Source of the DNA: Candidatus Cloacimonadales bacterium
GTDB taxonomy: Bacteria; Cloacimonadota; Cloacimonadia; Cloacimonadales; JAFGVF01
Assembly: GCA_963678315.1 (NCBI GenBank)
Contig: OY782781.1
Coordinates: 1,088,001 to 1,152,000 of the forward strand
DNA length: 64,000 nt
Reading direction: 5' to 3'
Part shown: piece after piece, positions 18,001 to 21,000 of the stretch
Numbering within the stretch: position 1 is the stretch's first letter
Layout of the letters: each line of letters opens with the position of its first letter
Program-made: the position numbers

Positions 18001-21000
18001 TGCTACTCCCATTGCTGCTGAGTAGGCAAAATTACTGTTCTTACCAACAACAAACTGATCAAATGTATAAAATTGATTTAACTTAGGTAATTGAGTCTTT
18101 TTAATAAGATTTTTTTGAATAGGTGTAAATGATTTTTGGCTTGAATCTGTAGTTGAATTAGAGAATATAACTTCGAATTTTTGACCATATATGTTAAAAG
18201 CCAGCTCCGTGATTATCTGCATATAATTACTTTTTATAAAATCTGCAGCTACTTTAGTTGGAACTAATATGTGCAAGCGATTACCTTCTATTTTTGCAAG
18301 GTGTGTTTCGCTAAACCAAGTCTTAAAACTCTGTTCTTGTATATGATCTTCTAACTCATCTAATATGTTTTGCCAAATATCTTGATCCATTCTTACCTTC
18401 ATTATTCAAATTTATGTTTATTTAAGCGTGCTTGCATTAGATTTTATTTGTATGAATATGAAAAATTCCCCTTTCCATATCGTCATATAGTATATTAGTA
18501 CTTATCCACAATTTTGCTTTGTTGCTAAATAATAATAACTTACACATTTTTACTAATGCAATAGGATAAATTTATATAGGTCTCACAACTTGTCAAGCGC
18601 TGAAAATCAAGTTAAAGAAGTAGTGAAAAAGACCTCTTACTCAAATTCTAGTAACTTATCCACATTCTTACACAATACAAAAAACACAATCTAGAGCTAT
18701 AACTAACTGTTAAATATGTACTTGCTATTTGGCAAAAAAATATTGGTACTCAAGCTTCTAGCTTGATAAATAATGTTCAAAAGTAAAACCCCGAAGGGGT
18801 GGCATATATTAAGCCTGGATCTTGTACCCCATGTAACATGATATAAATGATTTGAGTCCCGAAGGGACGGCATAATGTTTAATCCAGAATGATTATTATG
18901 TATTAGTCCCGAAGGGGCGACATAAATTAAGCCAGGGCTGTGTCCTGCTTTGACTGAGTCTGGTACCCCATGTATGTTCGCAAAGCCTGAATCTTAAAAA
19001 CCCCAAAGGGGTGGCATATACTAAGCATGGGGTCTTGTACCCCATGTGGGGGATTGCACCCCATGTATTAGAGTTAGAGAAGTACCTAGCCCTGAAAGGG
19101 CGACATAAAACTTGACAATATAACTATTTGAATTTTTTATATAAACTACTAGGAGGTAAAAATGGGGCAATCGTTAGTAGTATCTTATTTCCACTTTGTA
19201 TTTAGTACAAAAAATAGGCACAACTCTATTAATGCAGATTTAGAACTTGAGCTTTATCCATACATAATCTCAATTACAAAAGAGCTAAAGTCGGATGTAA
19301 TAGCAATCGGTGGTTATTCTAACCATATACATATACTATGTCAATTATCAAAAAATATTTCAGTTTCCGAATATATCAGAAAGATTAAATCAAACACATC
19401 AAACTGGATTAACAAGAAAGATTTCCTACGATATCGTTTTAAATGGCAGACGGGTTATGGTGCTTTTACTGTACGTCCTTATGATCTAGATGTGATAATT
19501 AAATATATACATAATCAAAAAAAACATCATAAGAATATAAGTTTTGAAGATGAATTGATGAGCTTTGTTAAAAGCTACAAAATAGACTATGATGAACGTT
19601 ATATTTGGGAATAATGTTAACTTATGTCGCCCTTTCAGGGCTTGAATTTTGTATGCTAACATACATGGGGTACAAGACCCCATGCTTAGTATATGTCACC
19701 CCTTCGGGGTTGTTAAAATCCAGATTTTGCTAACATACATGGGGTACAAGACTCAGTCAAAGCCTGACACGGCCCTGGCTTAGTATATGCCACCCCTTCG
19801 GGACTAAATAGCAAATAAGTCAACTATCCACGAATGGCCCTAATAAACACGAATAAAAGAATACAAAAAACATATTTAACACAAAGACACAAAAAAACAC
19901 TAAGCTACACAAATCCAGACCATAAACAATTAAACATCTAAACTCGTAAACATCTTATCTGTTAAATCAGTGTTTTCAGTGTTCTATTGTCTTTCTCTTT
20001 TCATTATTAATTTATCATTTTTAATTTATTTTATGCCACCCCTTCGGGACTCAATTCATTTATGTCATGTTACATGGGGTACAAGACTCAGTCAAAGCCT
20101 GACACAGCCCTGGCTTAGTATATGCCACCCCTTCGGGACTAAATAGCAAATAAGTCAACTATCCACGAATGGCCCTAATAAACACGAATAAAAGAATACA
20201 AAAAACATATTTAACACAAAGACACAAAAAAACACTAAGCTACACAAATCCAGACCATAAACAATTAAACATCTAAACTCGTAAACATCTTATCTGTTAA
20301 ATCAGTGTTTTCAGTGTTCTATTGTCTTTCTCTTTTCATTATTAATTTATCATTTTTAATTTATTTTATGTCACCCCTTCGGGGTTTTAATGGATAGAGT
20401 TTGATTCTAACACTTTAGCTATACTAGCCAGCTAACCTACATTAAAACTGTCTAATAGTCCAATCAAGAGTGTTTTGCAACAGCTGATCTGGTGGATTTT
20501 TAATGAATTCTTGTTCCATCATCATTTTCATTAAAGAGCGAGCTTCTTCAATATCATGCTTTGCAATCTGGAATACTTCCTCAAAGCTCAAATCGACATT
20601 TGCAACTCCATCTTGGATTGCTTGCATGGCAACATCAGCCGCTTCTTGCGGGAATACTTGGGCTTCACTCATTGTAGGGATTATATTGTCAGGTGAAATT
20701 CCTCTTTTTTCTGCATAATCGGCTAAAGAATAAGCTGATCTAATAGCCATGTTATCTGTGATTTTTCTTGCTCTTACAGTTAAAGCACCTTTTAATATGC
20801 CTGGGAACCCTAATGAGTTATTAACTTGATTAGGGAAATCTCCTCTACCTGTTGCTGTTATGAAAGCACCTGCTTCTTTAGCAGCATAAGGATATATTTC
20901 AGGAACTGGATTAGCACAGGTAAACACGATAGCTTTTTCATTCATCATTTTAATCCATTCAGGTTTAACAGTATCTGGACCTGGTTTAGAAACAGCAATT

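Follow-up and report, generated by a model that had tools for sequence, protein, structure and literature searches.

Acido-Lenti-1, Classified as a Small RNA, Is Probably a REP-like Hairpin DNA Repeat Associated with a Y1/HUH Transposase

Introduction

The REPtron of Proteobacteria (Nunvar 2010; Bertels & Rainey 2011; Quentin 2018; Corneloup 2021) combines REP or REPIN elements with a RAYT (TnpA-REP) gene. The locus described here resembles it in having a low-copy Y1/HUH transposase gene between inverted hairpin repeats, in the dispersal of these repeats as tens to hundreds of extragenic copies with a separate family for each paralog, and in the existence, in other genomes, of inverted doublets without a gene. 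A CT adjoins the hairpins, and TnpA-REP cuts at such a CT. The locus differs from the REPtron in its protein, which is of class 1 (Y---Q--HH) and not of class 2 (Y---NP), in an A-T-N-N-C leader where REPs carry a GT[AG]G tag, and in a unit of three hairpins over ~90 nt, the two small ones in direct orientation. Unlike in the REPtron, this genome carries its copies singly or in direct arrays of modules and not as inverted doublets.

The IS200/IS605 insertion sequences (IS608, ISDra2) contain the nearest solved relatives of the protein, which also passes the NCBIfam model IS200. They share with the locus the combination of a hairpin and, 5′ of the hairpin foot, conserved sequence, and the small hairpins of one module are direct, as are the left and right ends of such elements. 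In contrast to them, the locus has no near-identical gene copies in its genome (47–52% identity) and no tnpB-sized ORF adjoining, and the flanks of its transposase gene are inverted instead of forming direct ends.

Among the Y1 transposases, subclass 1.2 of TnpAY1 is listed by Quentin et al. 2018 (PMC6006769) with the entry “REP: no” and is placed mostly in Cyanobacteria and Bacteroidetes. The protein studied here shares the features entered there for this subclass: DH[IV]H, WQ and YIKNQKEHH-type motifs, a similar length (a median of 148 aa there, 150 aa here), and few copies with low identity between them. It differs from the subclass as described in those entries by hairpin repeats beside the gene, seen in 62 of 80 homologous loci, and by a wider range of phyla.

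The repeat itself matches the motif Acido-Lenti-1 (RF01687; Weinberg et al. 2010, PMC2864571), whose entry carries the Rfam type “Gene; sRNA”. Both have the same two hairpins and linker, and 16 copies in this genome, together with many gene-flanking copies elsewhere, pass 37 bits; the model, however, lacks the first small hairpin of the repeat, and the copies beside the transposase gene reach only 16.5–25.8 bits. Another group of orphan hairpins, the CGTC-tagged REPs, counts Chlorobi and Bacteroidetes among its host groups and is said in its description to “apparently lack a dedicated transposase” (Di Nocera et al. 2013, PMC3733652). Their unpaired 5′ tag, CGTC or TGTC, is similar to the leader TGTCG or TGCC found here, whereas their stems, as that paper describes them, have 8–9 bp, an A/T start and a CCA tail, against 5 bp and a G+C-rich composition in our repeat. 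On this description, stem length and composition set them apart, and we rejected them as the same family.

Full-text searches, with subscription journals and the supplements of Weinberg 2010 outside their scope, found no literature link between Acido-Lenti-1 and a TnpAY1 or RAYT transposase. Here we analyze a 64,000-nt stretch of a Candidatus Cloacimonadales genome (the window; positions count from its first letter unless given for the contig), where Acido-Lenti-1 is likely a hairpin DNA repeat of the REP/RAYT kind and the substrate of its cognate transposase, a 150-aa Y1/HUH enzyme of subclass 1.2.

Results

The Transposase Fits TnpAY1 Subclass 1.2

The transposase gene, paralog A (g00839 in the genome-wide survey's note), is an intact ORF. 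Alignment of its product revealed the HUH motif (H55-I-H57), W95-Q96 and Y115-x3-Q119-x2-H122-H123. The closest solved structure is IS608 TnpA (2a6m, E = 1.2e-8), and E. coli TnpA-REP is absent from the PDB matches at E ≤ 1. The protein passed the NCBIfam model IS200 with 63 bits against a cut-off of 55 and failed REP_Tyr_transpos with 30.1 bits against a cut-off of 80. Paralogs A, B and C all display the features of subclass 1.2: (D/N)HIH, WQ, YI(H/S/D)NQK(K/E/I)HH, a length of 150 aa, and 27 residues past HH, where the subclass has a short conserved C-terminal tail. By this comparison of motifs and length with Table 1 of Quentin 2018, the clade fits TnpAY1 subclass 1.2 (Y---Q--HH) and not a canonical class-2 RAYT. 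The survey's term “RAYT type” needs refinement accordingly, since the Y---Q--HH motif and the REP_Tyr_transpos score speak against a canonical RAYT.

The gene had also been recorded as single-copy, which tblastn corrects: two full-length paralogs exist, paralog B in the window (16223–16672, minus strand, 52% identity to A) and paralog C at contig position 599369–599818 (minus strand, 47%), and the genome holds no copy of A closer than these. HUH, WQ and Y-x3-Q-x2-HH are invariant in all three. Four more Y1 genes in the window are of another class. In the relative G003, identity among seven gene copies is mostly 32–70%, but two pairs reach 91% and 97%. Between dnaA (17056–18402) and the next long ORF (20442–21905), no tnpB-sized ORF was found.

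Paralog A Lies between Mirror-Image Arrays

Scanning of positions 18400–20500 with cmscan (E ≤ 10) yielded eight RF01687 matches. All five to the left of paralog A, at 18788, 18856, 18906, 18999 and 19089, are on the minus strand, and all three to the right, at 19597, 19664 and 20362, are on the plus strand. The inverted arrays noted by the survey are thus confirmed in their strands; its counts of four copies on the left and five on the right are not, the numbers per flank varying with the profile (5 + 3 by cmscan, 3 + 3 by a three-hairpin nhmmer profile). The copies beside the gene score at most 25.8 bits, below the Rfam gathering score of 37 bits, which no copy in the window attains. The hairpins closest to the gene on its left and right match each other at 21 of 21 nt in inverted orientation (blastn).

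The features are collected in Table 1. Reading away from paralog A, the right proximal module consists of a small, a middle and a small hairpin. The outer right modules and an AT-rich spacer are contained in a 335-nt tandem duplication. DNA contigs break at the modules of 18400–20500, where word depth rises from ~9–28 to 200–1270; the breaks and the rise show repetition and nothing more.

Table 1. Transposase genes, hairpin modules and tandem arrays in the window.
Feature	Position	Strand	Evidence
Y1/HUH transposase gene, paralog A, 150 aa	19162..19614	+	ORF; Pfam Y1_Tnp 4.9e-25
Right proximal three-hairpin module	19621..19710	+	nhmmer three-hairpin profile 73.8 bits; RF01687 19664-19711 25.8 bits, 19597-19642 22.1 bits; fold
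Second right module, middle part expanded	19725..19805	+	nhmmer 27.3 bits, profile positions 33-92
Third right module, middle part expanded	20030..20140	+	nhmmer 57.5 bits; in second copy of 335-nt tandem unit
Solo small hairpin with leader	20362..20385	+	RF01687 model positions 22-45, 20.0 bits; perfect 5-bp hairpin 20373-20385
Left proximal module, half of middle hairpin duplicated	18999..19109	-	nhmmer 18999-19047, 19047-19109; RF01687 18999-19046 23.1 bits, 19089-19110 19.1 bits
Second left module, middle part expanded	18905..18972	-	nhmmer 46-nt profile 20.3 bits; RF01687 18906-18929 16.5 bits
Third left three-hairpin module	18788..18877	-	nhmmer 68.7 bits; RF01687 18788-18811 20.3 bits, 18856-18878 21.0 bits
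Tandem duplication of a 335-nt unit, 1.9 copies with 99% matches	19736..20383	.	Tandem Repeats Finder
Family A three-hairpin modules without a transposase gene nearby	31352..31441, 31862..31951	-, -	nhmmer 57.3, 53.8 bits
Paralog B transposase, 150 aa, 52% identical to A	16220..16672	-	tblastn, alignment, Pfam 6e-26
Paralog B repeat array, 252 nt x 2.7 copies	15526..16209	.	RF01687-like part per unit, 27 bits, minus strand

A Three-Hairpin Module as the Repeat Unit

The two-hairpin unit assumed in the survey proved too short. Judging by alignment and folding, the real repeat unit is a three-hairpin module of ~90 nt, of which Rfam models two hairpins. It opens with a small hairpin carrying an A-T-N-N-C leader, followed by a spacer of 20–35 nt, an 8-bp middle hairpin with CT directly after it, a linker, and a second small hairpin. 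The two small hairpins stand in direct orientation and have the same leader, A(-5) T(-4) N N C(-1), which takes the forms T-T-A-T-Y-N-C or A-T-N-N-C and often reads TGTCG or TGCC. In the 60 gene-flanking modules, the middle hairpin is followed by C in 56 cases and then by T in all 60. The GT[AG]G tetranucleotide was not found at the hairpin foot in the modules.

The first small hairpin is the one that the RF01687 model leaves out; it is conserved and covarying. Two-sided changes occur in 14 of the 18 pairs of the 60 modules, including all five pairs of the hairpin outside the Rfam model, and the observed covariation was reached by none of 500 shuffles, in an alignment that includes related sequences. 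Modules that flank one and the same gene resemble each other more (a mean of 0.81) than modules of different loci do (0.65). An asymmetry between G.T and A.C (40 A.C against 5 G.T), considered as a marker of the folded strand, was dropped because it was the innermost position of the first hairpin, probably belonging to a 5-nt loop, that drove the count (one pair has 21 unpaired cells).

Dispersal of the Repeat in the Genome

RF01687 has 128 matches in the genome at E ≤ 1, and 16 of them exceed the 37-bit cut-off, where the survey had counted 18. Fresh nhmmer profiles returned 87 copies for the 46-nt motif (85 at ≥20 bits) and 88 for the three-hairpin unit, in agreement with the 88 copies reported earlier. 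These family A copies occupy 61 places, 45 of which are single dispersed modules; elsewhere in the genome there is an array of seven with a 260-nt unit. The copies had been described as lying entirely outside real genes, and 82 of the 87 do lie outside ORFs of ≥100 aa, although such ORFs make up 87.9% of the genome; the remaining five touch ORFs of 105–122 aa within repeat arrays. Copies on both strands were found at only one of the 61 places, around paralog A itself, so that REPIN-type inverted pairs are not the rule in this genome.

Each of the three paralogs, 47–52% identical, lies between an inverted pair of a different hairpin, and the repeat families of A, B and C are dispersed over 61, 13 and 32 places, respectively. 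The flanks of paralog B, which carry the small hairpin of this paralog in inverted orientation to each other, are 89% alike over 19 nt. Its repeat array is accompanied by a further unit at 16956–17002 (minus strand) on the opposite side of the gene, and the RF01687-like part has the same strand on both sides. The repeat of paralog C does not match RF01687, no match to this family being listed near it in the genome scan at E ≤ 1; with this paralog as the case in point, an RF01687-like repeat is not used by every member of the clade.

Homologous Loci in Other Phyla

We retained 80 homologous loci out of 387 relatives and scanned all 80 against Rfam. The record titles of the homologs name Acidobacteriota, Verrucomicrobiota, Planctomycetota, Bacteroidota, Ignavibacteria and others, and the isolates among them include Algivirga pacifica JCM 18326 and Plebeiibacterium sediminum AAT. 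RF01687 accounts for 172 of the 195 Rfam matches at E ≤ 1 and occurs in 66 of the loci, in 62 of them within 150 nt of the gene; 14 loci have no RF01687 match at this threshold, and 18 have none within 150 nt. Match density is ~18-fold higher beside the gene (99 in 30.4 kb) than beyond 400 nt (26 in 144 kb), and the top gene-flanking scores in other phyla range from 37 to 56.8 bits.

The strands follow the same rule as around paralog A. Within 150 nt upstream, there are 36 minus-strand against 10 plus-strand matches, and within 150 nt downstream, 43 plus-strand against 10 minus-strand matches. Nineteen loci combine a minus-strand match upstream with a plus-strand match downstream, and one shows the reverse. 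At ≥37 bits, the expected strand prevails by 14 to 1 upstream and by 13 to 1 downstream. This rule is kept across phyla at 35–49% protein identity. The inverted flanks that the survey had reported from other phyla are confirmed with stronger support than it had given.

Co-Occurrence and Gene-Less Doublets

In 40 relatives of this genome, 21 carry both motif and gene, 4 the motif only, 3 the gene only and 12 neither; for 40 genomes of one acidobacterial class, the corresponding numbers are 24, 2, 4 and 10. Since related genomes are not independent, both tables overstate the support. Copies without a homolog of the transposase (E ≤ 1e-10) are present in G034 (53), G055 (52), G037 (15), G039 (12), G071 (4) and G028 (1), and homologs without a motif match in G008, G030, G035, G050, G056, G057 (6 gene matches) and G062 (4).

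In the acidobacterial genome G041, we found at least 10 gene-less inverted doublets of 132–156 nt, and one pair 608 nt apart encloses a transposase homolog. Another acidobacterial genome, G045, has at least 16 inverted doublets of 66–74 nt and at least 10 of 81–165 nt, with no same-strand pair among the matches listed. Gene-less inverted doublets predominate in both genomes among the matches listed, a stronger picture than the doublets that the survey had mentioned for an acidobacterial genome.

Discussion

Given the scattered copies and the mirror-image flanks of a transposase gene in many phyla, the motif is most likely a mobile repeat that belongs to this enzyme, not a gene for an RNA. The survey had already proposed that it is the cognate hairpin of this transposase clade and no free-standing sRNA, and its proposal is favored by the agreement of bracketing, enrichment beside the gene, co-occurrence, per-paralog families, doublets and the lack of an orientation preference; the support is association throughout. 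If Acido-Lenti-1 is a transposase-linked DNA repeat, its annotations will have to be relabeled, and the numbers of “sRNAs” would be inflated in Acidobacteriota, Verrucomicrobiota, Planctomycetota and others. TnpAY1 subclass 1.2, reported without REP in its entry in PMC6006769, would gain a candidate substrate. The REP/RAYT type of partnership would reach many phyla and, within the transposase family, a lineage on the side of IS200, which bears on the origin of such partnerships.

A gene between two inverted modules, each reading away from it, would constitute a REPtron-like unit. The gene-less copies occur in extragenic DNA, singly or in direct arrays in this genome and as inverted doublets in Acidobacteriota. 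By analogy with IS608 TnpA and TnpA-REP, the protein may bind the folded single strand of the module, with the leader 5′ of the hairpin serving as a guide, cut at the CT adjoining the hairpin and then rejoin the DNA. The modules could be spread in trans by the transposase in this way. The replication strand speaks against this reading: with the origin and terminus inferred from GC skew in 10-kb steps, the lagging-strand template carries the motif strand in 30 of 88 copies and 23 of 60 places, a weak bias opposite to the expectation from IS608, and we did not build on it.

Alternatively, the motif could have an independent function as RNA, either as a structured small RNA or as a cis-acting element (for example, a stabilizer or terminator), and its link to the transposase would then be secondary. 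Compensatory changes maintain the hairpins, many of their loops are TTCG or TTTG, and the motif is rated a probable RNA in Table 1 of Weinberg et al. 2010 (PMC2864571); a folded DNA strand, however, explains the covariation equally well. Past the stop codon, the first small hairpin precedes a T-rich stretch and was classed as terminator-like (19629–19641), and if transcribed, the hairpins could also act in RNA. Over 18400–20500, however, neither promoter-like sites (14 against 10.4 ± 4.3) nor terminator-like sites (2 against 1.2 ± 1.3) are in excess, and relative to the upstream gene the copies prefer no orientation, with 44 sense and 50 antisense. The 87–88 copies per genome with their tandem arrays, the inverted doublets that predominate among the matches listed for G041 and G045, and the presence of copies close to the transposase gene (within 150 nt) in 62 of 80 loci under a mirror-image strand rule also argue against an RNA with its own function, which we consider improbable.

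A different possibility is that the hairpins are a landing pad, existing doublets being the targets both of the transposase gene, acting as a small insertion sequence, and of other mobile elements. The authors of the original description reportedly observed IS605-type transposases and group II introns near the motif and proposed a role as an insertion site. The gene-less doublets share their head-to-head geometry with the gene flanks, and in one homologous locus (L072) group II intron domains adjoin RF01687 matches. The landing pad is nevertheless hard to reconcile with the distances at the gene: a small hairpin begins ~5–20 nt from the stop codon in the window and in the 12 loci inspected, a distance too short to accommodate separate ends of an element. 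Homology between different contexts also takes in the modules and stops at their outer edge. Loci L006 and L021, from different contexts, are 90.7% alike over 1381–2044 only, which corresponds to module–gene–module, and L069 and L075, which belong to one genome, share 743 bp at 94.9% similarity; in these pairs, homology ends directly past the outer hairpin. Each paralog, moreover, has its own repeat family, and this genome offers no gene-less inverted family A doublet as a target, the sole mixed-strand place of the 61 being the gene's own. We regard insertion into pre-existing doublets as quite improbable.

Spread by host slippage, recombination or gene conversion, with the transposase gene surviving among the repeats or using them as insulators, would account for the large share of copies in tandem arrays (252 nt x 2.7, 335 nt x 1.9 and the 260-nt array of seven) and for the more than 50 copies without a homolog in G034 and in G055, but it is very improbable in view of the 45 of 61 places that are single dispersed modules, the concordant genomes (21 + 12 of 40 and 24 + 10 of 40), the strand rule kept across phyla at 35–49% protein identity, and the intact catalytic residues of all paralogs.

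Within the reading of Acido-Lenti-1 as the cognate repeat of its transposase, a more specific version can be put forward tentatively, although we doubt it more than we believe it. Each module may be a complete miniature transposon of the IS200 “peel-and-paste” type, which a class-1 enzyme acting in trans would excise as single-stranded circles of ~90 nt and reinsert. The small hairpins would then be the left and right ends, the middle hairpin the cargo and the CT the cut mark, and two modules back to back would make up both the unit with the gene and each inverted doublet. If this were true, the members of Acido-Lenti-1 would be the smallest non-autonomous single-strand transposons known, and their family would span phyla.

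Inverted RF01687 Repeats Around Paralogue A and Their Copies in the Genome

At Rfam gathering scores, no match to RF01687 (Acido-Lenti-1, filed as an sRNA; gathering score 37 bits) was found in the 64-kb window. At E ≤ 10, the region 18400–20500 contains eight matches of 16.5–25.8 bits, with five of five on the minus strand to the left of the Y1 transposase gene (paralogue A) and three of three on the plus strand to its right, reproducing the inverted flanks reported in the genome-wide survey's note. The gene-proximal small hairpin, with the leader TTATGTCG, reads away from the gene on both sides, and the two sides are identical at 21/21 nt. 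Next come a middle hairpin of 8 bp and then another small hairpin, whose leader is TATATG(T/C)C; together, the three form a module of ~90 nt. More modules lie farther out, some with an expanded middle part, and a 335-nt tandem duplication (99%) is located to the right of the gene; the AT-rich spacer of its unit (window 19806–20030) carries CCACGAA/CACGAA words. In public DNA contigs of close strains (runs X1–X3), compared over window 18400–20500, the transposase gene is kept with 6–7 differences per 426–566 nt; these contigs break at every module, where word depth rises ~10- to 45-fold.

The contig comprises 2.99 Mb with a G+C content of 32.8%. Genome-wide, 128 RF01687 matches were obtained at E ≤ 1 (16 above the cut-off), representing two sequence families, of which family A surrounds paralogue A. 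Profiles of family A recovered 87 copies of a 46-nt motif and 88 of the three-hairpin unit, in agreement with the 88 copies counted earlier, distributed over 61 places (45 single). ORFs of ≥100 aa account for 87.9% of the genome, yet 82 of the 87 copies have no overlap with any of them; the remaining five touch ORFs of 105–122 aa within arrays. The copies occupy intergenic regions of all kinds without a strand preference (44 sense and 50 antisense with respect to the gene upstream), and their replication-strand bias is weak and opposite to expectation. Only one of the 61 places, the one around paralogue A, has copies on both strands. The majority of dispersed units carry TTCGTG repeats upstream (TTCGTGGTAAAC-like) and TTATGGATAGC downstream; therefore, the dispersed family A unit may be longer than three hairpins in this genome.

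Transposase Class and Paralogues

The gene had been described as single-copy; tblastn instead revealed two full-length paralogues, B and C.

Transposase genes and dnaA (window coordinates unless a contig is named)
Feature	Position	Strand	Remarks
Paralogue A	19162-19614	+	150-aa ORF; Pfam Y1_Tnp 4.9e-25
Paralogue B	16220-16672	-	full-length; 52% identical to A (tblastn)
Paralogue C	contig C1:599366-599818	-	full-length; 47% identical to A (tblastn)
dnaA	17056-18402	-	between paralogues B and A
Other-kind Y1 gene 1	22286-22825	+	Y1_Tnp
Other-kind Y1 gene 2	27148-27669	-	Y1_Tnp
Other-kind Y1 gene 3	33495-34016	-	Y1_Tnp
Other-kind Y1 gene 4	37718-38245	+	Y1_Tnp

Against NCBIfam, paralogue A scored 63 bits with IS200 (cut-off 55) and 30.1 bits with REP_Tyr_transpos (cut-off 80). 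The closest solved structure was IS608 TnpA (1.2e-8), and E. coli TnpA-REP was not among the structure matches at E ≤ 1. The alignment of paralogues A, B, and C contains (D/N)HIH, WQ, and YI(H/S/D)NQK(K/E/I)HH, with HUH, WQ, and Y-x3-Q-x2-HH kept in all three. These motifs and the 150-aa length fit, at the sequence level, TnpAY1 subclass 1.2 of Quentin et al. 2018 (PMC6006769), listed in their Table 1 with DH[IV]H, WQ, YIKNQKEHH, a median of 148 aa, "REP: no", and occurrence in Cyanobacteria and Bacteroidetes; the same source gives 1.7 copies with 36% identity between copies. The signature of class 2, the true TnpA-REP proteins, is Y---NP, whereas paralogue A has Y-x3-Q-x2-HH, and the GT[AG]G tag of a REPtron is missing from the repeat. 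Thus, of the earlier designation as a RAYT-type transposase with a cognate repeat, the REPtron-like working is retained, yet the enzyme lies outside the canonical RAYT class. "IS200 Group 3", characterized in Bertels et al. 2017 as being without duplicates, absent from plasmids, and accompanied by abundant flanking 16-mers, may be the same clade as the present transposases.

A distinct hairpin, present as an inverted pair, encloses each paralogue (21/21 nt for A, 89% of 19 nt for B, and 76% of 34 nt for C), and the dispersed repeat units of A, B, and C occur elsewhere at 61, 13, and 32 places, respectively. Paralogue B, located across dnaA from paralogue A, and paralogue C are held in arrays of their own multi-hairpin units of 252 nt and about 150 nt. 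Family B is also RF01687-like (27 bits), on the same strand either side of the gene and within the 252-nt units; no RF01687 match was listed near paralogue C in the genome scan at E ≤ 1. A separate repeat family for each paralogue is likewise described for tnpA-REP genes in Quentin et al. 2018 (PMC6006769). A TTGACA-like box lies between the upstream hairpin and the start codon in all three paralogues (CTTGACAAT, TTTGACAAT, and GCTTGACAAAAT, gene strand; window 19100–19161, window 16673–16760, and contig near 599819–599900), so each seems to keep its own predicted promoter within the hairpin bracket.

RF01687 at Homologue Loci in Other Phyla

We scanned the best 80 of 387 loci related to the three paralogues (35–49% identity) against Rfam at E ≤ 1. 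By record title, they belong to Acidobacteriota, Verrucomicrobiota, Planctomycetota, Bacteroidota, Ignavibacteria, and others. RF01687 accounted for 172 of the 195 Rfam matches, in 66 loci (14 of the 80 had none at E ≤ 1), and was found ≤150 nt from the gene in 62. Its density was 99 matches per 30.4 kb adjoining the gene versus 26 per 144 kb beyond 400 nt in the same loci. Within 150 nt, 36 minus and 10 plus matches lay upstream, and 43 plus and 10 minus matches downstream; at ≥37 bits, the corresponding counts were 14 versus 1 and 13 versus 1. The combination of minus upstream and plus downstream occurred in 19 loci and the reverse in one, which bears out the earlier statement that homologues in other phyla are flanked in the same inverted orientation. 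Some of the 20 proximal matches in the opposite orientation are part of doublets adjoining the gene (L049, L074). At one locus with RF01687 matches, L072, group II intron domains (RF02001, 63.3 bits; RF01998, 28.2 bits) lie at 3050–3438, ~1.1 kb downstream of the homologue.

Three-Hairpin Structure of the Module

The same module is present on both sides of the gene in the window and in all twelve loci inspected. Among 60 aligned gene-flanking modules, nearly all contain the first small hairpin, which is outside the Rfam model, and 94.2% of cells are paired in the three-helix structure. Two-sided changes occur in 14/18 pairs, including 5/5 of the first hairpin; this covariation was reached by none of 500 shuffles, and slid controls dropped to 0.02–0.1, although related sequences overstate it somewhat. 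Both small hairpins share the leader A(-5) T(-4) N N C(-1), mostly with T after the stem, and after the middle hairpin come C in 56/60 modules and then T in 60/60. Similarity is higher between the two modules of one gene (0.81) than between modules from different loci (0.65), and the gene's own partner module ranked first in 7/15. In loci L079 and L064, the upstream and downstream middle hairpins differ in a fully compensated manner (CCCAGGGC...GCCCTGGG versus CCCAGCCC...GGGCTGGG); therefore, two structural variants of the module can flank one gene.

Co-Occurrence, Doublets, and Probable Mobile Units

In a set of 40 genomes related to this one (motif E ≤ 0.01, gene E ≤ 1e-10), 21 contained both motif and gene, 4 the motif only, 3 the gene only, and 12 neither. 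The corresponding counts for 40 genomes of the acidobacterial class around genome G041 (motif E ≤ 1e-4) were 24, 2, 4, and 10; no P value is given because kin genomes are not independent. RF01687 matches accompanied by no transposase homologue at E ≤ 1e-10 numbered 53 in G034, 52 in G055, 15 in G037, and 12 in G039. Genome G014 has 65 matches and two homologues, both with an in-frame stop; RF01687 gave no match in G057, which has six gene matches.

Inverted doublets of the kind previously noted in an acidobacterial genome occur in G041: among the 150 of 243 rows listed, at least 10 minus/plus pairs lie 132–156 nt apart, and another pair, 608 nt apart, encloses the homologue of locus L006. One gene-enclosing pair each was listed for G042 (604 nt) and G043 (584 nt), while the rows listed for G045 include at least 16 plus/minus pairs of 66–74 nt, at least 10 minus/plus pairs of 81–165 nt, and no same-strand pair. 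That RF01687 is an element with an RNA function of its own appears very unlikely to us, as this would not account for the number of copies, their random orientation, the occurrence of doublets, or the link to the transposase.

Between loci of differing context, homology is confined to module-gene-module: L006 and L021 are 90.7% identical over 1381–2044 with unrelated flanks, L008, L024, and L063 share ~630 bp, and L069 and L075, on two contigs of one genome, are 94.9% identical over 743 bp. The right homology edge falls directly past the outer small hairpin. This confinement indicates that the gene-bearing unit itself moved, or was transferred, as a block. Another very unlikely alternative, that the hairpins are a landing pad for inserting elements, agrees with the group II intron at L072 but is at odds with the absence of separate element ends, the unit-level homology, and the own repeat family of each paralogue. 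Genome G003 has seven full-length paralogues that mostly share 32–70% identity, while two pairs reach 91% and 97%; these identities indicate that duplication of the transposase gene is rare but not absent.

Proposed Mode of Action

According to Corneloup et al. 2021, a folded hairpin is the binding target of IS200/IS605 transposases, which select the cut site through its pairing with four bases located 5' of that hairpin's foot; TnpA-REP proteins are described there as cutting at a CT adjoining the REP and ignoring the complementary strand. The conserved unpaired leader 5' of the small hairpins and the CT after the hairpins resemble this arrangement. By analogy, the transposase would bind the folded module strand-specifically and cut at a CT, and the cut ends would then be rejoined; we propose these steps because leader and CT sit where the IS200/TnpA-REP logic needs them. 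One module could even be a complete miniature IS200-type element, since its two small hairpins are in direct orientation and share a leader, though we consider this rather doubtful.

Other Y1 Genes Around dnaA

Four further Y1_Tnp paralogues of another kind (173–179 aa, 51–64% alike, NHVH) end exactly in ...EYIRNN before the stop and score 61–66 bits with REP_Tyr_transpos, below its cut-off of 80. On both sides of each gene are inverted G+C-rich repeats of its own, for instance ACTGGGAACGCT (upstream) and AGCGTTCCCAGT (downstream) at gene 1. This brings the Y1 genes around dnaA to six in ~22 kb, with several transposase-repeat pairs side by side. Neither the minimum of the cumulative GC skew (~0.73 Mb, 10-kb steps) nor the point where gene-strand bias switches falls at dnaA (1.105 Mb).
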